Below the pieces are notes generated by a model, which was not told the DNA's origin, ran no database searches, and saw nothing but the letters and a program-made list of their open reading frames with translations. A DNA stretch of 64,000 nt from Bacteriovoracia bacterium. GTDB lineage: Bacteria; Bdellovibrionota; UBA1018; JBFWNL01. Below, one piece after another: positions 25,646 through 34,632 of the stretch; position 1 is the stretch's first letter; every line of letters starts with the position of its first letter. The translations under genes were made by a program, and so were the position numbers. The stretch lies in the NCBI GenBank assembly GCA_050251055.1, contig JBFWNL010000005.1, positions 64,001 to 128,000 of the forward strand. Direction: 5' to 3'.

Positions 25646-25881
25646 GCGAAGATAAAAAGTTGATCGACCGTCTCTGGGTGCTGATCGTGGCCGTGGCCAC
25701 GGTGGGGCCGTTCGCCCTTCCGCTTTTGTGGCGCAATCCGCATTACAAGCTATCGACGAAGATCGGCGCTTCCGTATTGGTGGTCGCGTTGACCGTCTAC
25801 TTGCTTTATTTCTCGGCCGGGCTCATGCAACAGCTAGCCGAGCAGCTTCAGGCCCTGCAGCAGATGCAGAACCAGAATTAA
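25636..25881 (+). CDS. Small 2-TM membrane protein
   Basis: GPFALPLLWRNP motif, two TM segments, coupled to the radical SAM gene; exact start uncertain. Confidence 0.65.
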   Translation: MPVSEDKKLIDRLWVLIVAVATVGPFALPLLWRNPHYKLSTKIGASVLVVALTVYLLYFSAGLMQQLAEQLQALQQMQNQN

Positions 25882-26585
25882 AACCCGTAAGTATAGAAGT
25901 AGTAGGTATAGCGCTGGTACGTGAACGAGTAATACGGCGAGTGATTCAGGTAGGAGCCGCCTGAATAATACGACGGGTAGTAGTAGTAGTTCGGGTCGTA
26001 GTATTGGCCGTAGTTGCGCGGGTTAAAGAAATAGCCGGGATTTCCGTAGTAGCTGGGCGGTTGGCCCCACGAGTAAGGGTACTCTACTCCGTAGCGGACG
26101 TTGAAGCGGCCGCACCAGCCGTCTTGGCCATGGCCATAACCGCGTCCATAACCATAACCAGGTCCGTAACCATATCCAGGCCCGTAGCCGTATCCATACC
26201 CACGCCCATACCCGCGTCCGTAAGCGGGCATTTCTGGGCGAAAGAAGTACCAGGACCCATCCACCGGTCCGCCTTGATAGTGACCCTGCGGGGTGACGAC
26301 TTGGTTGGGAGCGACGTTGGTGTACTCGCGCGATTCGCCGGCGAAGGTCGCTTCGTTTTGCGGGCTCATTGCGATGTAGGTCGCGGATTGGTGATATTGA
26401 GTTTCACCGGTTTCGTTGTCCATGCGAACGACGATCACGCCCTGGTTATAGCCGCCACCGTAACCGGGTTGGCCGGGTTGCGCGGGGATGACCAACGGAG
26501 TGGCGGGGCGAGAGTCCGTCCCGCAGGCCGAGAGCAGTAAAGAAGTTCCGAGTACTAAAGCATGGGCGAAATTCATTTTTTTCAT
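25878..26585 (-). CDS. Lipoprotein with a Tyr/Gly-rich C-terminal half
   Basis: Lipobox LLLSAC; GYG repeats; pro-region resembles that of 30764..31246. Confidence 0.8.
   Translation of the reverse strand: MKKMNFAHALVLGTSLLLSACGTDSRPATPLVIPAQPGQPGYGGGYNQGVIVVRMDNETGETQYHQSATYIAMSPQNEATFAGESREYTNVAPNQVVTPQGHYQGGPVDGSWYFFRPEMPAYGRGYGRGYGYGYGPGYGYGPGYGYGRGYGHGQDGWCGRFNVRYGVEYPYSWGQPPSYYGNPGYFFNPRNYGQYYDPNYYYYPSYYSGGSYLNHSPYYSFTYQRYTYYFYTYGF
26130..26225 (-). repeat. Coding GYG(R/P/Y) tandem repeats
   Basis: YGRGYGRGYGYGYGPGYGYGPGYGYGRGYGHG; boundaries approximate. Confidence 0.8.
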
Positions 26586-28215: not shown

Positions 28216-28968
28216 TTACTCACGAAACGGTTTTTCGCCCGTCTTTTGTTCAAAGCGCTTGGCCCATTCGGTAAGTAAGTCCGGATGTGCCGGTCCAAAA
28301 CCGCAGGGGCCGGCATCGTCGGAAGAACGGTAGGTGGCCTTCGAAGGCGAAGCGCCGTAGTGGCACATGAGGCAATTGTGGAGCGGTACGCGGTTCATCT
28401 GGATGCGCAGATCCCGTCCGCTCGCCGCGCTTTGAAATGCGACCTCGAAAGCAGGGGTGCCGGTGTACCGGTTTAGTTTCAACTTTCTCGGCGTGGCTTC
28501 GCCCAAAAATTCCTCGGGCGAATAGACTCCGAGCGCCCAGCGCCCCTCGGGGAGCAGTCGGGCGGTACGCAATTCATAGACCTGTGGGATCGCGGTTTGG
28601 AATTCCAGAAGGTGAAAAAGCTGGGTGCCGACGGGGTACTCCCAGCGCTCTCCCGTTTCGGTTTGAATGCGCCGGATGGCATGGCCCTTGGGCACGTGGG
28701 CATAGAAACGCTCGCGAAAGGCTTCCATCAGGTTGGCGTGGATGGAAGTCGGCTTATCGTTGATGAGGATGCGTAGGCCGAGCGGGGAAAATAGGAAGCG
28801 TGCAGGTTGGGAGAATTCCACGGTATGCGCGCCTTCTAGAACGCTGAGGGAGATTTCCTCGGGTAGGCCTTCGTAAAGCGGACCGGCCAGAACGAGAGAA
28901 AGGGGGGCGAGAAGCAGGCAACCGGTGACTAACAGGATCTTGAGAATCATTCTCATTTTTGTTCGCAC
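28216..28968 (-). CDS. Secreted protein with a single CxxCH (putative c-type heme)
   Basis: Signal peptide; CLMCH near the C-terminus followed by GPCGF. Confidence 0.65.
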   Translation of the reverse strand: MRTKMRMILKILLVTGCLLLAPLSLVLAGPLYEGLPEEISLSVLEGAHTVEFSQPARFLFSPLGLRILINDKPTSIHANLMEAFRERFYAHVPKGHAIRRIQTETGERWEYPVGTQLFHLLEFQTAIPQVYELRTARLLPEGRWALGVYSPEEFLGEATPRKLKLNRYTGTPAFEVAFQSAASGRDLRIQMNRVPLHNCLMCHYGASPSKATYRSSDDAGPCGFGPAHPDLLTEWAKRFEQKTGEKPFRE

Positions 28969-29061
28969 AGAAGCCTTTGCCCGGCAAGCGGATACCCGGC
29001 AATGACAAGAGGCGTTGACGCTTTTTCAAGAACAGGTCCGCGTCTGGGCTCGTGATCCCGA

Positions 29062-30672
29062 CTATTTTGGCGTCTCGGCGAGTTTTCGCAGCTCCGCGGG
29101 AAACGGCGTCCGCCATTCACGGGATAGGGCGCGCCGCTTTTTGAATGCGAGTTGGGGCGAAACGATGGTCCCTTGCTTTTCCTGGGCGACGGCGATGACC
29201 TTTTTATCTTTGGAAGAAGCCACGATGATGTCGGTAGGCAGCGTGCGTTTGGCGCCAACGGCTTTTAGTTCCGGGATCTCGGTCGGATCCTGCGTCGTTA
29301 GGGCGGTGAGATAGCCGCGGGCGTCGAACACGAGCTGAGCGTCTTTCGGCACGAGTTTTTTGGTCCACTCATCCAGTAAGTCGAGCGTCCCCGTGCGTAG
29401 CATCGGGGGAGCCAGCGGTGTTTTTAGCGTGTTCATGAAACGACGGACCTGGCCCGTGGTGAGGCCAGGCTCTTCGGATTTCATCACCGCCACGGCCGCG
29501 GCCAAAAATGCGGCCGCGGTGGACGAGCCGTCGAAGCTTTCTCCGTTCGTGAAGCGCACGCGGGCGCCGTCGATAGAGACTTCGGGCTTTACGCGTCCGT
29601 CGGCAGTGGGGCCGATGGAGGAAACCCCGGTAAAATCACCGACGGTAATCACCGTGGGGTTGTCCGCCGGAGCCATGATCTCGCTCGTTTCGGAACGATC
29701 GTGGAAAATAACGGCGTCCTGCTTGTCGGATTTCAAGAGCACGCGCAAGCGGTCCATGGATTCGAAATGGTTGGATTTTGCGCGCACTTGGATTCGATAG
29801 TTACCGCGATTGAGATTCACGAGCTGGACGGTTTCGCGGGCGTGACTCGAAAGCTTGGCGTTATCCGGCGAGGCGTTGGGATCGTCCTTGGCTTTCGGAG
29901 CCTCTCCCCGCTGGATCAGTTCGCCGGATCCGACGAGTTGGTCCTTTTCGTCGTAAACGAATACATCGAGATCCTTGGCGGTATTATAAGCCTCGTCATC
30001 TTTGAAGTCGCTCCAGCTCAGGCTGATATTCACGGTGTTCTCGTCGAGCAGATTCTGGAAGCGCAGGTGATCCCGCACCCCGAACTGCACGACGTCGCCC
30101 TTGAGCTGGCGTTTGATTGCGGCGTTGTGCACCATCGCGCCGTGGTTGCCGGAGGCATTGATCCAAATCACGCCCGCCGCGGTGGCGCGGCTCACCTGGG
30201 CATTAATAAAACCCTTGCCGTCGAAGTTACTACCGAACGGCCAGACCTGGCTGTAGAGCACGACGTCGATTTTGTGTTCGATCACGTAATCGATTGCGGC
30301 TTTAAGATTCGAGAATCCGTTGGTGTTGATGAGATAGAATTCGGGGCCGGTCTCGCGCTTGCCGGTGAGCCCCCAAATGACTTGGGCCATCCCGGTACCG
30401 TGCGTGGTTTGGCCGGCGGGGAACTGGGTGAGGTTCAATAGCTGGGCGTTGTCGGGCAGCAAACCCTTGCCGGTTTCGAAGCCGCCGAAGCCGTTGTCGA
30501 GCACGGCGACTTTCACGTGCTTCAGCTTCTCGGCGTTCGCATAGGCGCGCAGGCCCAGGTTGTTACGCAGACGCTCGCGGTCCATGATCTCGTTTGCCGC
30601 CAGCGCCTTTACCGCGAAGGCCAGAGCCATTGAAACCGCCAAGATGCTGAGGATCCACTTTTTCATAAACAT
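29062..30672 (-). CDS. Secreted S8 (subtilisin-like) serine peptidase with an inserted beta-domain
   Basis: VAVLDNGF (Asp), HGTGMA (His), NASGN, FDGSSTAA (Ser); signal peptide from ATG 30672. Confidence 0.85.
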   Translation of the reverse strand: MFMKKWILSILAVSMALAFAVKALAANEIMDRERLRNNLGLRAYANAEKLKHVKVAVLDNGFGGFETGKGLLPDNAQLLNLTQFPAGQTTHGTGMAQVIWGLTGKRETGPEFYLINTNGFSNLKAAIDYVIEHKIDVVLYSQVWPFGSNFDGKGFINAQVSRATAAGVIWINASGNHGAMVHNAAIKRQLKGDVVQFGVRDHLRFQNLLDENTVNISLSWSDFKDDEAYNTAKDLDVFVYDEKDQLVGSGELIQRGEAPKAKDDPNASPDNAKLSSHARETVQLVNLNRGNYRIQVRAKSNHFESMDRLRVLLKSDKQDAVIFHDRSETSEIMAPADNPTVITVGDFTGVSSIGPTADGRVKPEVSIDGARVRFTNGESFDGSSTAAAFLAAAVAVMKSEEPGLTTGQVRRFMNTLKTPLAPPMLRTGTLDLLDEWTKKLVPKDAQLVFDARGYLTALTTQDPTEIPELKAVGAKRTLPTDIIVASSKDKKVIAVAQEKQGTIVSPQLAFKKRRALSREWRTPFPAELRKLAETPK

Positions 30673-30686
30673 AGCCAACTTCCTTC

Positions 30687-30753
30687 GTGAGCGAGAACGA
30701 GGCTCCCCTTGACGGAGAAGATTAGGCCCCCGACGTCGGGGAGCCTCTCTCAC
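30687..30753 (-). terminator. Intergenic stem-loop between the Tyr-rich gene and the S8 peptidase
   Basis: GAGGCTCCCC (30699-30708) pairs with GGGGAGCCTC (30738-30747), with inner and outer extensions; no U-tract. Confidence 0.6.
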
Positions 30754-30763
30754 TCAGACCTGA

Positions 30764-31246
30764 TTACCACCAACCGCGATAGCAGTTACTGTAACGGGGA
30801 TAATAGTACGTGTAGCTATATCCCGAGTAACGGTAGCTGTAGCTCGGATAGTAGTAGTAGGTGTAGCCATAGCTGCCACGGTAGTAATTGTACGAGTAAT
30901 AGTTTCCGCAACTATTACGATAGTAGTTACCGTAGTTGTAGCCGCCGGAGTAACTCCAGCGGTGCCACGACTCATCTGACGTGACCTTGTCCAGCTCCGT
31001 GCCGTCGGTCACGTTCATCAGGTTCTCTTTCTTCACGTGAGACATGGCGTTCATGGCGGCCTTTTCGTCCGTCACGACCTTCATGTCCTTAGCGAGATAG
31101 ATTTCCTGATGACCCGAGACGTCCTCGCGGACCACGAGACCTTGAGGGGCGTCTTTGCCATCAGCAGGAGCGGTGGGATCAAGCTCACCCGCGGATGCGC
31201 TGAGCGCGCCCACGGCAAACATCATCAATGCGATGTGCTTAATCAC
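30764..31246 (-). CDS. Secreted pre-pro-protein with a Tyr-rich C-terminal core
   Basis: GTG start with AGGAGG RBS; signal peptide ..LSASA; the last 66 aa contain 26 Tyr. Confidence 0.85.
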   Translation of the reverse strand: MIKHIALMMFAVGALSASAGELDPTAPADGKDAPQGLVVREDVSGHQEIYLAKDMKVVTDEKAAMNAMSHVKKENLMNVTDGTELDKVTSDESWHRWSYSGGYNYGNYYRNSCGNYYSYNYYRGSYGYTYYYYPSYSYRYSGYSYTYYYPRYSNCYRGWW

Positions 31247-31249
31247 GAT

Positions 31250-31456
31250 GTGCCTCCTAGTTACTCACCCATAAAACCCCCGCCGCTTGCGCAGTGGGGT
31301 GAAGGGCACTGGGTGAGGTTCAGTGCTCTCAGACTAGGTTCTGAAGATCGCTTGGAGCGTGAGCGTGTGCCCCGTTCGTTTAGGCGCACGGGGTAGCGCC
31401 TGGGCGGACTGAAGGATGATTCAAGTCCGTCCGACTCCAAAAAAAATCCAGAACGG
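31250..31456 (-). ncRNA. Candidate structured 5' leader (cis-regulatory RNA)
   Basis: Several nested helices between the sigma54 site and the RBS. Confidence 0.45.
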
Positions 31457-31466
31457 AGGGCTGTTC

Positions 31467-31482
31467 AGCAAGGGGTGTACCA
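31467..31482 (-). promoter_or_regulatory. Sigma54-type -24/-12 promoter
   Basis: Minus strand reads TGGTACACCCCTTGCT. Confidence 0.7.
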
Positions 31483-31643: not shown

Positions 31644-32090
31644 TTAGCTTGCGCGGATCACGATTCCAGTGATCGAGTAGCTACCGCAAGTCGGTGAACC
31701 CGTCACCGTCACCGTGAGGTTGTTGCCGTCCAACGTGCCCGATAGTGTCAGCGCGCCCGTGCAGGTACTGGGGGCGGTGAGGGTGATCGTGCCGGTAACG
31801 GAGTTGCCGGATTTAGTGGCGGTGATCGTGCCCTGATAGGTGATGTTCCCCGTTGTCGTGACGGCGGTGTAAGTTCCGGTGGTGGTGCTACCTGATTCCG
31901 TCATCGCAAACTGCGCAGTCGCGCTTTGGCCGGTGGCGCCGCCGATGGTTCCGGTCAAGGTACCCGTGAAGGTTCCGGTCAGCCCCTTTCCACAAGAGGT
32001 CAGGGATAAAGCGAAAAGCGCCACTACTGCGAAATTCACTACTTTCAACCGGATCTTCATAGCTGGATCATCTCCCTTATATATCCTCAA
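31644..32090 (-). CDS. Small Thr/Gly-rich beta-strand lipoprotein
   Basis: Lipobox SLTSC; alternating Thr/Gly strands, two additional Cys. Confidence 0.7.
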   Translation of the reverse strand: MRIYKGDDPAMKIRLKVVNFAVVALFALSLTSCGKGLTGTFTGTLTGTIGGATGQSATAQFAMTESGSTTTGTYTAVTTTGNITYQGTITATKSGNSVTGTITLTAPSTCTGALTLSGTLDGNNLTVTVTGSPTCGSYSITGIVIRAS

Positions 32091-32204
32091 GAATGACGGG
32101 GATATGCAACAAAATCAATTGAAAAGGTGGCAATGGCTCCTCCTTTCCTCCGTCAATTTTGTGGCATGGTGATTCGGGGAGTCGCGTGCGATCCTAAGCC
32201 GTAT

Positions 32205-33326
32205 ATGAAAATCAAATGGATCGTAGCGGGCGTGGGGTTCGCGTGGGCCATGACGGGACCCGCGACGGTGCAAGATCACGGTTTTCGATTTCGGGATGGA
32301 GTCTGCCAGGATGAACGGGGGCTGCGCGGGCTGAATCCGGGGTACTTCGGCCAGTGTGGGGATCTGAGTGGCGCGGTGCTCGCCAAACTCGATTTGAGCG
32401 GAACAGACTTCAGCGGTACGCTCTTGTCCTCCGCGATTTTAACTCAGGTGTCTTTCAAGGGGGCGACCCTTAAGGGTGTTCGCTTTGATTCATCCCGATT
32501 CGAAGACGTGAAATTCGACGACGCCTTGGTTCAGGGCGCGGATTTCTCACGGGGTACCTTCAAGCGCGTGACGTTTCTGAATGCCAAGCTTTCGTCGACG
32601 CGATTCGTAGGCAGCGATTTGCAGGGTACGGTTGCGGATCAGTTCGCTTGCGAAAAATGCGATTTCACGGGGGCATTTCTGAATGGCGTGACGTGGACCT
32701 CCGCGCAGCTGGAAGGTGGAAAGTTCGTGCGCGCCAATCTCTCCAGCGCCAATCTCTCGCGTGCCAACCTGGGAGGAGCTGATTTTTCGGAGGCGCGCGT
32801 GACTTCCGCGGTGTTAGAACGCGCCACGCTCAGTCGCGCGGAAATGCGGGGGGCGAACTTTCGGGCCGCGAAGCTGAAGGGTGCCATCGTGGCGGATGTG
32901 CGCTGGGCGGGCGCGGTCTACAGCCGTAAGACGATCCTCCCTTTTTCTGAAACCGACGCCAAGGACCTGGGAATGATCTTGAAGGGTGCCGAATGCCAAG
33001 CGGGCACCGACGTCGAAGTGGACGAGATTTGCTATTACCTAGACGGCTCGGGCGGCAACTGCGCCGAAGACTTCATGCTCGCGCCCCAGTCGATCCTGGC
33101 GACGATTGGCACGAAATTCGTGGGCAAGACCTATCGCACGAAGGTTTCCGATAACTGCTGCGTCTACCATGCCGAGGTGGCGAAGGAAGGCGAAGATTAC
33201 GGTGCGCAAATCGACTGTAACGAGCCAGGCCCTTTCAAGGAGGGCGTTATTCTCAATGGTGCCGGCTGCACGGACGTACAGAACAAGCAGCCGGCTCAGC
33301 TGACTCTTTGTATGTCGAAGGAATAG
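32205..33326 (+). CDS. Secreted pentapeptide-repeat protein with a Cys-rich C-terminal domain
   Basis: ANLSSANLSRANLGGADFS-type repeats; C-terminal domain with many Cys. Confidence 0.85.
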   Translation: MKIKWIVAGVGFAWAMTGPATVQDHGFRFRDGVCQDERGLRGLNPGYFGQCGDLSGAVLAKLDLSGTDFSGTLLSSAILTQVSFKGATLKGVRFDSSRFEDVKFDDALVQGADFSRGTFKRVTFLNAKLSSTRFVGSDLQGTVADQFACEKCDFTGAFLNGVTWTSAQLEGGKFVRANLSSANLSRANLGGADFSEARVTSAVLERATLSRAEMRGANFRAAKLKGAIVADVRWAGAVYSRKTILPFSETDAKDLGMILKGAECQAGTDVEVDEICYYLDGSGGNCAEDFMLAPQSILATIGTKFVGKTYRTKVSDNCCVYHAEVAKEGEDYGAQIDCNEPGPFKEGVILNGAGCTDVQNKQPAQLTLCMSKE

Positions 33327-33342: not shown

Positions 33343-34632
33343 TTAGCGCAGGCCCCAGATCTCCACCGTGGCTTGCGAATTGTTCAATACCGGATATCCG
33401 CCGTAAGGGCTGCGCACGTAAGTGGACACGCTTTGGCCTACGACGACGATCGAGTCGATGCACTTGGTGCCCCAACGCGAGAGATCGCGCCAGGCGAGAT
33501 CGCCCGCACCATCGACGTACACGCCGTTGACATCAAGCTCGTCGCCCGTGCCGTCGGTGAACCGCAGCGCGATACGATCGATGTTCGCGGCGGCGCCCGT
33601 CACGCGGATGCGCACCTTCTTCACGCAATTGGTGTAATCATTCACTTCGATGACGTCGAAGTCCGTCATGCTGGTGGAGAGCGACGTCGATCCGATTTTA
33701 TAGACCGACTGGCCAGTGGGAATGCCCACGCGACAGGCGTCTTCCCAGTTGCCGACGAAGCGATCGTAGCGGGCCGAGCCGGCACGCATGCTGAAGCCGC
33801 GCTGGGGTTTGAAGCGATAGCGCCCTCCGCGCTCTTCGGCATTGCCGATCGTGCCCCAGCCGCCGTGGCGTTGGGGGCGGCCCGGGTTCGGATTATAACC
33901 GCCTGGGTTACCAGGGTTACCGGGGTAGCCAGGGTTGCCACCGGGGCGTCCAGGGCCGCCGGGGTAACCGGGGTAACCAGGATTGCCTGGGTAACCTGGG
34001 TTTCCAGGATAGCCGGGGTTCGTGGGTGGAGCCGGCGGATTGTAGGCCGGGACCAAGCTCTTCATGTAAAGGCGAAGCGTCACCATCGCGGCGGATACCT
34101 TATCGTAGTCCGCTTCGATCTGACGCAGGTTGAAATGGCGCGCGAAACGGGCGCGGCGGCCGCCGTTAAATTCCGTCATCTGCATCACGAGCTGGGTCTT
34201 GAAGCTCGTGGCGTGCTCGTCCAGAACTTCGAAGGCCGTCGGCAGCGAGAATAGCGTCCATTCCACGGCGTACTTTCCGGTACTGTCGACGCGATTCACG
34301 AGGTCGTTGAAGATCAGCACCGAGGTGTTCAGGCGCTGGGCTTCGAACATGATATCCATTTCAGCCTTGCTGCTCGTGTCTTGACCGCGCCAGTAGTCGG
34401 CGCCCCAGTAGTCGCCGCTCATGTTGTTGAAGTAGGTGTTGGCGGTCGTATTCATGGCGTTCGCCTGCGTCACCAGGTAATTGGTGAGCTCGCGGACGCG
34501 ATCCATGCGAGGATCGCTGCAGTGGCCGTCGATTCCGGGTTGGGCCTGGGAGGTCGCCGCGATGGCGAGCAGGGCCAGGGCGGATACGATTTGGGTCGAG
34601 ATCTTGGTTTTCATTTTCGTTTCCTTTTCCAT
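33343..34632 (-). CDS. Secreted protein: helical domain, GNPGYP linker, beta-sandwich C-terminus
   Basis: Signal peptide ..AATSQA; Pro/Gly repeats; C-terminus DFDVIEV..ATVEIWG. Confidence 0.78.
   Translation of the reverse strand: MEKETKMKTKISTQIVSALALLAIAATSQAQPGIDGHCSDPRMDRVRELTNYLVTQANAMNTTANTYFNNMSGDYWGADYWRGQDTSSKAEMDIMFEAQRLNTSVLIFNDLVNRVDSTGKYAVEWTLFSLPTAFEVLDEHATSFKTQLVMQMTEFNGGRRARFARHFNLRQIEADYDKVSAAMVTLRLYMKSLVPAYNPPAPPTNPGYPGNPGYPGNPGYPGYPGGPGRPGGNPGYPGNPGNPGGYNPNPGRPQRHGGWGTIGNAEERGGRYRFKPQRGFSMRAGSARYDRFVGNWEDACRVGIPTGQSVYKIGSTSLSTSMTDFDVIEVNDYTNCVKKVRIRVTGAAANIDRIALRFTDGTGDELDVNGVYVDGAGDLAWRDLSRWGTKCIDSIVVVGQSVSTYVRSPYGGYPVLNNSQATVEIWGLR
33880..34040 (-). repeat. Coding (GN/GY)PG tandem repeats
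   Basis: NPGYPGNPGYPGNPGYPGYPGGPGRPGGNPGYPGNPGNPG; boundaries approximate. Confidence 0.85.

Follow-up and report, generated by a model that had tools for sequence, protein, structure and literature searches.

Gene neighbourhoods point to a conserved pair of an aromatic-tailed secreted protein and an S8 subtilase in Bdellovibrionota

What does a bacterium make from a small, tyrosine-rich secreted protein that is encoded directly ahead of a secreted subtilase? This question is raised by a locus in a 64,000-nucleotide (nt) stretch of the genome of a Bacteriovoracia bacterium (GCA_050251055.1, contig JBFWNL010000005.1, positions 64,001 to 128,000; hereafter the window), in which the genes for a small protein of 160 amino acids (aa), an S8 subtilase and a protein with a C-x-x-C-H motif follow one another on the minus strand, with a stem-loop between the first two. 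A preliminary description had read the small protein as a signal peptide, a charged pro-region ending ELDKVTSDESW and a 66-aa core with 26 Tyr, 2 Cys and no acidic residues, followed on the same strand by a stem-loop, a secreted S8 protease and a secreted CxxCH protein; every one of these particulars holds, and all the elements are present. Judged by gene order, the small protein and the subtilase are a conserved two-gene module of Bdellovibrionota, and the likely product of the pair is a processed material of the envelope or matrix that sticks to itself.

The small protein is composed of the following parts.

30764..31246, minus strand: gene for the 160-aa secreted pro-protein with an aromatic tail, an open reading frame (ORF) with its translation and a GTG start; the counterpart in Bdellovibrio bacteriovorus HD100 is Bd0450
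31190..31246, minus strand: signal peptide, residues 1-19 (MIKHIALMMFAVGALSASA), read from the sequence, with A-x-A ahead of the cut
31178..31186, minus strand: first E-L-D motif, residues 21-23, one residue past the predicted signal-peptidase cut
30965..31189, minus strand: acidic pro-region, residues 20-94 (75 residues), ending in ELDKVTSDESW
30965..30997, minus strand: junction ELDKVTSDESW, residues 84-94, the second E-L-D followed by S-x-x-S-W
30767..30964, minus strand: aromatic tail, residues 95-160, including YYYYPSY

The signal peptide, as read from the sequence, is hydrophobic and ends in SASA. The two mature parts differ sharply in charge, with an isoelectric point (pI) of 4.46 and a net charge of -8 for the pro-region versus a pI of 9.23 and a net charge of +5.8 for the tail, whose 66 residues comprise 26 Y, 10 S, 8 G, 6 R, 6 N, 3 W, 2 C, 2 T, 2 P and 1 H and no D or E. 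This richness in tyrosine is beyond chance composition, because the 3.77-Mb genome has 31,503 ORFs of 60 aa or more and only four of them reach 10 or more Tyr per 40 residues; the two peaks of the genome, at 20 and 17 Tyr per 40 residues, are the small-protein gene and a gene 4.2 kb away. No tandem repeats were found in the DNA of the tail, and searches of Pfam and NCBIfam returned no family match for the protein.

The linkage of the two genes can be followed from both sides. From the precursor side, a profile (A1) built on an alignment of six small proteins, each encoded directly upstream of an S8 orthologue in a related genome, was run over 116 genomes of the order and matches 18 of them; these are the genome of the window, one genome whose match is weak and stop-ridden, and 16 others that match solidly. 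An S8 orthologue lies immediately downstream in 13 of the 16 other solid loci, and the remaining three consist of one genome (G009) with a different abutting S8 gene, one locus (L023) without S8 and one precursor at a contig end. In G009 the precursor gene overlaps by one base this second, different S8 gene (L020 1495-3252; 455 aa, PF00082 at 9.4e-28) and an orthologue of the window S8 follows 2 kb further on, so that one precursor is accompanied by two subtilases. The protein encoded at L023 is a relative of the small protein that lacks the ELD as well as a neighbouring S8.

From the protease side, 80 loci of S8 relatives, nearly all of them from Bdellovibrionota, were surveyed. Directly upstream and on the same strand, 57 of these carry a precursor detectable by hidden Markov model (HMM), and nine more have a divergent aromatic-tailed ORF upstream, two of which encode lipoproteins with a ...STQSW junction; two loci lie at a contig start and 12 are without a precursor. 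The lipoprotein variants of the family, at L086 2649-3725 and L049 2841-3737, stand directly upstream of S8 relatives, and in the former an array of PVQGKV(V/F)QA repeats has been inserted, which separates the ...STQSW junction from a short aromatic end. Seven of the 12 precursor-less loci (L043, L044, L046, L047, L064, L085 and L096) have an upstream gene for an FmdB-type zinc-ribbon protein, which combines MPIYEYxCxxC with a low-complexity Ser/Ala/Pro tail and occurs in the precursor-less S8 sub-clade. Specifically, a quick maximum-likelihood tree of 73 S8 sequences, midpoint-rooted and with several long branches flagged, places all nine precursor-less rows in one clade of 13 (Shimodaira-Hasegawa-like approximate likelihood ratio test, 96), and all rows of the other two clades, of 24 and 36 rows, are paired except two at contig edges. 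When the neighbours at 57 loci are clustered, S8 is found in 56, BLAST links the precursor in 42, and the cluster that comes next reaches 17; this clustering yields no third conserved gene near the module, no oxidase and no modifying enzyme of the type that acts on peptides made by the ribosome and modified after translation (RiPPs). Because the linkage is phylum-wide and is seen from the precursor side and from the protease side, gene order supports the small protein and the S8 protease as a functional pair.

A word-seeded protein search with the small protein found one relative, and it was an exhaustive profile search with A1 that revealed the family, which at 50% identity comprises 326 clusters with E <= 1e-3, of which 135 reach E <= 1e-10, with lengths of 118-230 aa among the 150 best clusters listed. 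The family profile matches 75 of 401 sampled Bdellovibrionota genomes, and these belong to many taxonomic families, with an uneven spread among them (for example 22/53, 17/34, 9/20, 1/100 and 0/17 genomes). Within A1, E21, D23, V39, A67, E84, D86, S90 and W94 are invariant. W94, Y132 and Y148 are near-invariant residues of the small protein. Two motifs bracket the front of these proteins. The N-terminal [GSDN]-E-L-D after an A-x-A site occurs in 120 of 151 family representatives, with G, S, D or N ahead of the ELD in 100 of these 120 and with A at -4 in 66 and at -2 in 84. The second motif, [SGDN]-E-L-D-[RQK]-x-[ST]-S-x-x-[SA]-W, is present in 124 of the 151, shows the same preference in the preceding residue and lies 56-84 residues from the first, ELD to ELD, with a median of 63.

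The tails that follow the second motif are 27-129 residues long (median about 50) and consist of 38% Tyr, 11.7% Gly, 8.6% Trp, 8.4% Asn, 7.6% Ser and 3.7% Phe, with D, E and K totalling 0.6% and aliphatic residues about 2%; Tyr makes up 0.5% of the front halves. No D or E occurs in 111 of 124 tails, and the pro-regions are net negative in 113 of 124. A turn of the form aromatic-x-Pro-[S/C/T/A]-aromatic, comparable to YYYYPSY in the window protein, is found in 89 of 124 tails; exactly one Cys is present in 74 of 124, and 122 of 124 front regions have none. The last residue is Trp, Tyr or Phe in 100 of 124 tails, often after Arg, and the median tail charge is +2, with some tails, including that of HD100, lacking any charged residue. 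The tail is thus hypervariable in length and sequence and constant in composition, and the front is conserved, acidic and motif-bearing. The pattern is that of a conserved putative leader and a variable core, the leader part being made up of a Sec signal and a predicted folded domain. Across 96 family members Pfam returned 17 families, each for one member only and at chance level (best E 0.0025); curlin repeat, chaplin and TasA gave no profile match, with no Pfam family for the window protein and none shared among the 96 members, and the ESM Atlas returned only unnamed clusters below 0.9 and structures with a template modelling score (TM) below 0.5. The earlier reading of the protein as pro-region plus core therefore fits the family, with its conserved acidic front and compositionally constant tail, and the co-occurrence check that had been proposed for the link to S8 upholds that link, at 13 of 16 precursor loci and at 57 of 80 S8 loci, plus the nine divergent ones.

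An AlphaFold2 model of the pro-protein, built on an alignment of 96 sequences, reaches a mean predicted local distance difference test (pLDDT) of 75.5 and a predicted TM (pTM) of 0.67. The predicted elements are a beta-hairpin at residues 36-52, a helix at 61-68, a strand at 93-97 across the SW junction and, within the Tyr tail, a meander of three strands at 116-150. Confidence is highest at residues 31-70 (pLDDT 88-94) and 131-150 (93-94) and falls to 55-65 around both ELD motifs (65 at residues 81-90) and to 49 at 101-110. Since both ELDs lie in low-confidence segments, as exposed linear motifs do, recognition by a partner is favoured. The Foldseek and VIA-align rows listed contain no convincing likeness of the model to a solved structure.

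The candidate partner is the second gene of the module, with the following features.

29062..30672, minus strand: gene for the secreted S8 subtilase, 536 aa, PF00082; the HD100 counterpart is Bd0449
30496-30498, 30400-30402 and 29521-29523, minus strand: catalytic D59, H91 and S384, invariant in 6 and in 46 aligned sequences
29704..30123, minus strand: beta-rich insertion, residues about 184-323, a Csp-like jellyroll inside the subtilase domain

The likely start is the ATG at 30672 (MFMKKW), which stands behind AAGGAAG; the longest ORF instead begins at a GTG at 30753. The protein scores 51.1 bits against PF00082 (cut-off 21.8; E 1.6e-13) and matches subtilisin BPN' at 8.6e-12 in a profile search of the PDB, and the profile score above threshold, the order Asp-His-Ser and the subtilisin alpha/beta fold together identify it as a subtilase. 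D59 (VAVLDNGF) aligns with the catalytic-Asp strand of BPN' and S384 (GSS) with its GTSMA motif; for H91 the assignment relies on its HG motif together with its invariance. Given the invariant D/H/S residues and a confident AlphaFold2 model (pLDDT 91.9, pTM 0.82), the predicted enzyme looks active. It has no propeptide, with about 28 residues between the signal peptide and the first core strand at residue 54, and Pfam finds no I9 match in it. A complex prediction of the subtilase with the pro-protein scored 0.12 against a mark of 0.32, a value that counts neither for nor against binding. Two NCBIfam candidates, mycosin (26 bits versus 278.75) and QhpE (23.7 versus 165), fell below threshold and were rejected.

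The insertion explains where the nearest structural relatives lie. The BPN' profile matches the subtilase in two pieces, residues 48-183 and 324-409, and the top Foldseek matches are CspA, CspB and CspC (E 3e-14, TM 0.43-0.50), of which CspB aligns over 356 residues, compared with about 245 for plain subtilisins. The Csp proteases carry a jellyroll inserted in the subtilase domain and keep a bound prodomain (PMC3567191). The jellyroll insertion is thus common to the clostridial proteins (CspB, CspA and CspC) and the window subtilase, whereas the bound N-terminal prodomain is found only in the former, and sequence identity between them is only 13-17%. Csp proteins, furthermore, belong to the spores of Firmicutes, whereas the window enzyme is one that a Gram-negative predator exports through Sec, and it carries an additional domain of about 120 aa at its C-terminus. 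Because the bound prodomain that defines the working of Csp proteases is missing, the window subtilase is not filed as one of them.

When and where such a pair works can be read from B. bacteriovorus HD100. At a closed-genome locus (L122), a 132-aa precursor is encoded with a 525-aa S8 protease (57.16 kDa), and the precursor is identical at 131 of 131 positions to HD100 CAE78432.1 (Q6MQL5), which is annotated as a 'hypothetical protein'; with this pair, the window precursor shares 29% identity and the window S8 34%. In supplementary file 2 of PMC3627812, Bd0449 has 1578 nt and Bd0450, 196 nt upstream, has 399 nt, and these lengths and this spacing are those of the L122 genes. The same source gives reads per kilobase per million (RPKM) of 0.76 in attack phase versus 197.9 in growth phase at 3 h for Bd0450 and of 0.77 versus 66.1 for Bd0449, which makes both growth-phase specific, a property common to most genes of that table (PMC3627812). 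At the protein level, the data of PMC12546842 place Bd0449, with 20 unique peptides, in the 'Peak3h' cluster, where its value rises from 5.94 at the start to 6.80 at 3 h and falls to 4.24 by 7 h, and describe 3 h as late growth and septation. Mass spectrometry also detected Bd0449 (Q6MQL6, 'putative protease', 57.2 kDa) among the supernatant proteins of host-independent B. bacteriovorus (PMC3898049). Because of the growth-phase RPKM values, the protein peak at 3 h and the presence of Bd0449 in the supernatant, the pair is seen to be expressed inside prey late in growth, and the protease to reach the cell exterior. Transcriptome contigs cover both genes of the HD100-type locus in four of four runs from four studies, with a separate contig for each gene in one run and one contig across both genes in another; such contigs show presence in the libraries, and not level, strand or a single transcript, and a stretch upstream of the precursor that lacks cover in one run likewise carries no weight. 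Two further roles were considered and rejected: an attack-phase adhesin for prey attachment, given that both HD100 genes are near-silent in attack phase, and an outer-membrane beta-barrel anchor, given the scarcity of aliphatic residues (only about 2%) in the family tails.

Between the two genes of the window lies a further element.

30685..30758, minus strand: stem-loop between the stop of the pro-protein and the start of the S8 gene, from folding of the 91-nt spacer and its flanks

The spacer with its flanks folds with a minimum free energy of -48.2 kcal/mol (z = -6.9 against 30 mononucleotide shuffles). No T-run follows the stem-loop and the terminator scan does not call it; at the locus as a whole, the promoter and terminator scan found no promoter-like site, and terminator-like sites were at chance level. 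A z below -2 was obtained for 21 of 34 folded spacers of 25-250 nt (that of the window and those of 33 related loci), so that a stable spacer structure recurs in terms of fold energies. An intergenic hairpin of this kind would hold the message of the structural gene in excess over that of the enzyme.

A second member of the family in the window shows another form of the tail.

25878..26585, minus strand: 235-aa lipoprotein, a divergent paralogue that shares the front domain and has a ...DGSW junction without ELD and a Gly/Tyr-rich tail

This paralogue contains 41 Tyr and 40 Gly, has GYGYGPGYG repeats and shares YYYYPSY with the small protein. Its relationship to the family is given by hhalign against the family profile A3 (probability 95.3%, E 2.3e-8, residues 50-115) and by the A3 HMM (2.8e-6), and in the 115 other genomes of the order it has no close orthologue, only low-complexity matches. 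Taken with L023 and the lipoprotein variants at L049 and L086, this predicted lipoprotein shows that tethered display of the aromatic tail is possible as well.

The explanation favoured here begins with a Sec-exported pro-protein that is paired with a dedicated, secreted, propeptide-less subtilase. The subtilase would act on the pro-protein encoded next to it, as conserved synteny suggests. Specifically, it would recognise the ELD-bracketed domain and cut at or near the second ELD, and this cut would remove an acidic domain of about 63 aa that would keep the tail soluble during export. The freed tail would then self-associate via its aromatic beta-strands, and disulfides may add to this self-association where the tail carries Cys. 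What results would be a material that is associated with the envelope or lies outside the cell, and it would be produced late in the growth phase. Cleavage by the subtilase followed by self-assembly of the tail is plausible; the chain taken whole, with a cut near the second ELD, an acidic domain that masks the tail and a freed tail that self-associates, is judged to have slightly less than an even chance. The narrower proposition that the subtilase acts on the small protein is rated above the chain as a whole.

Several observations weigh against this account. There is no observed case of cleavage of any family member, and the nature of the final material is drawn from composition alone. The AlphaFold2 model is one compact unit, in which the tail strands are placed confidently beside the front domain, and since the tail is ordered together with that domain, an uncleaved single-domain protein stays conceivable. 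The first ELD sits right at the N-terminal end of the mature protein, a place at which little would be gained by cutting, and ELD may be a motif for binding, or for binding metal, rather than for cleavage. Family members that lack both the ELD and an adjacent S8 exist, namely the L023 protein and the lipoprotein paralogue of the window, the latter being the second most Tyr-rich ORF of the genome. Nor is the hairpin a general feature, because the precursor-to-S8 RPKM ratio in HD100 is only about 3 and spacers are shorter than 25 nt in 22 of 57 pairs, by rough estimates of the starts. Additionally, Bd0450 (Q6MQL5) is absent from the seven searchable supplementary files of the HD100 proteome in PMC12546842, so that, within these files, the Bd0450 protein itself has never been seen.

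A more specific version of the favoured explanation would make these proteins a new class of 'aromatic-zipper' pro-proteins. In this version, an Asp-directed, Csp-like S8 enzyme would excise an acidic cap bracketed by [GSDN]-E-L-D, which resembles a caspase site, and the tail, a 50%-aromatic beta-hairpin, would polymerise into a Tyr/Trp material on the progeny or in the bdelloplast at septation. To our knowledge, Asp-directed specificity among S8 enzymes is known only from plant phytaspases. The version as a whole is improbable; if true, it would amount to a new bacterial biomaterial and a new maturation route.

Among the alternatives, the one that survives best would make the small protein a trans-acting folding helper or temporary inhibitor of the propeptide-less subtilase, with the aromatic tail as an anchor or plug. 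The enzyme indeed runs from its signal peptide almost directly into the core, with the first strand at residue 54 and D59 soon after, and the Csp proteases, its nearest structural relatives with the same insertion, depend on their bound prodomain according to PMC3567191. The position of the small-protein gene ahead of the protease gene and the tight coupling of the two in many loci would, furthermore, suit a one-to-one partner. A tail of 27-129 residues of which composition alone is kept would, however, be unusual for an inhibitor, the HD100 precursor transcript is about three times as abundant as the protease transcript, and the existence of paralogues without a nearby protease also speaks against a helper or inhibitor. 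Pfam finds no I9 propeptide in 96 members, and no propeptide complex appears among the fold-search rows listed from Foldseek and VIA-align, although a weak or missing fold match is compatible with either reading. On this evidence a helper or inhibitor is unlikely.

A second alternative takes the small protein as a single, uncleaved, folded beta-rich domain whose aromatic strands belong to its core or to a face that would bind, for example, sugars or envelope polymers; the subtilase would then be merely co-regulated or directed at other targets. It accords with the AlphaFold2 model, which is one unit with a pTM of 0.67 and high confidence in both halves, and with the near-invariance of W94, Y132 and Y148. 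The pairing is, however, kept over three deep S8 clades and most of the phylum, which is more than co-regulation usually preserves, and the split in Tyr between front (0.5%) and tail (38%) is sharp. The highly variable length of the tail and the placement of the conserved ELDs in the least ordered parts of the model fit such a domain poorly, and it is quite unlikely that the protein works in this way.

A third alternative regards the released tail as a weapon, that is, as an aromatic peptide with an Arg/Trp end that would act against prey membranes or outer-membrane assembly and that the acidic pro-region would keep harmless until it is freed in prey. An acidic pro-region joined to a basic tail is also the arrangement of the pro-forms of cationic host-defence peptides, and the window protein follows it with charges of -8 and +5.8. 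The C-terminus of the aromatic tail resembles the ends of outer-membrane proteins, with W, Y or F, often after Arg, closing 100 of 124 tails, and the hosts are predators that express the genes inside prey. Against this stand the median tail charge of only +2, the uncharged tails of HD100 and others, and the peak of expression at 3 h, when the prey is long dead by the account in PMC12546842. The existence of lipoprotein-tethered relatives, furthermore, makes a role in surface material fit better than a diffusible toxin, and a weapon is decidedly doubtful.

The third gene on the strand raises the last alternative.

28216..28968, minus strand: gene for a 250-aa secreted protein with an invariant C-x-x-C-H; a neighbour and not part of the module

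Its product has a hydrophobic N-terminus and the motif CLMCH, and its start lies about 93 nt past the S8 stop. C-x-x-C-H and AGPCGF are invariant in nine distinct sequences, the window protein and eight homologues from other genomes, and the protein thus appears to carry a conserved heme-attachment motif of c-type cytochromes; it is a member of a small family for which neither Pfam nor NCBIfam has a model. Of the 115 other genomes of the order, eight have a homologue, and these eight do not overlap with the 16 other genomes that have a solid precursor match. At the homologue loci (L107-L114) neither S8 nor precursor is found, and the neighbours there are an M28 peptidase, a GH1 protein, a C1 (papain-type) peptidase and a methyltransferase; conversely, none of the five S8 orthologue loci inspected in full (L003-L007) has a CxxCH ORF downstream. 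Because the homologues avoid precursor genomes and sit by unrelated genes, the CxxCH gene is, on the best reading of this distribution, not part of the module and an unrelated neighbour whose adjacency is coincidental. The preliminary description had counted the heme protein in; with disjoint sets of eight and 16 genomes and no third conserved gene across 57 loci, that member falls away, so that two-thirds of its three-gene picture (the small protein and S8) stand and one-third does not. Oxidative cross-linking of the released Tyr-rich tails to dityrosine by this protein is therefore very improbable and, as a conserved feature, largely refuted, given the disjoint genomes, the five loci without the ORF, the unrelated genes beside the homologues and the lack of a conserved oxidase near 57 loci, although the same strand, the short gap and the invariant motif would suit it and although Eimeria offers a parallel in Tyr-rich wall proteins that are cut by subtilisins and cross-linked by peroxidases (PMC4345034).

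Three other genes lie near the module. Upstream of it, a 148-aa lipoprotein that is Thr/Gly-rich with GTLTGT-type repeats and has no Pfam match is encoded at 31644-32090 (minus strand), and a 399-aa pentapeptide-repeat protein (PF00805, 1.6e-29) at 32127-33326 (plus strand). The gene at 33343-34632 (minus strand) encodes a further low-complexity exported protein, 429 aa in length, in which a Pro/Gly/Tyr/Asn repeat (PGYPGNPGYPGNPG...) runs over a long stretch and for which Pfam gave no match.

How, then, does the module compare with known systems? Its nearest functional analogue found is the oocyst wall of Eimeria, for which PMC4345034 describes Tyr-rich precursors, GAM56 and GAM82, that are cut by subtilisins into smaller Tyr-rich wall pieces. 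The logic is the same as that proposed for the module. The Eimeria system, however, is eukaryotic, lacks an operon arrangement of its genes and uses large glycoproteins as precursors, and a relation in sequence was not found; peroxidase cross-linking through dityrosine is documented there, whereas the module has no linked oxidase.

Bacterial systems offer further points of comparison. Lantibiotic loci with LanP or NisP combine a leader-core precursor with a dedicated subtilase, often with a hairpin after the structural gene. The likeness extends to a conserved, motif-bearing front, a hypervariable back and a structural gene directly upstream of the protease gene. In contrast to these systems, the precursor of the module has a Sec signal and a folded 63-aa domain in place of a short leader, no modifying enzyme or transporter is linked to it, and its 'core' is an aromatic, low-complexity stretch of 27-129 residues. 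Functional amyloids and coat proteins such as curli CsgA, chaplins and TasA are secreted, aggregation-prone beta subunits with accessory genes in the operon; they rely on nucleators, chaperones or signal peptidase and not on S8 enzymes, and their subunits are not 50% aromatic. The module resembles them in its secreted, predicted beta-forming subunit and in the accessory gene of the same putative operon, with no relation in sequence or Pfam family. Stand-alone I9 propeptide-like proteins (POIA1, 1v5i) are likewise small, are encoded apart from the protease and could bind an active site, but no Pfam match links them to the 96 members, the predicted order of secondary structure differs, and I9 has no aromatic tail.

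A secreted precursor with a dedicated subtilase is thus a known logic, and the Bdellovibrionota pair that follows it is so far uncharacterised; the open literature, with subscription journals and bioRxiv supplements outside the scope of the search, yielded no description of the family or the pairing. The module spans the phylum, is extreme in composition and unannotated, and can be put to the test in an organism that is tractable, since HD100, the model predator, carries it as Bd0450/Bd0449, annotated only 'hypothetical protein' and 'putative protease'. If the favoured explanation is true, the pair would represent a new kind of bacterial extracellular or envelope material that consists almost wholly of aromatic residues, a compact two-gene system for the controlled release of a self-associating peptide, and a function for one of the many unexplained proteases of Bdellovibrio.

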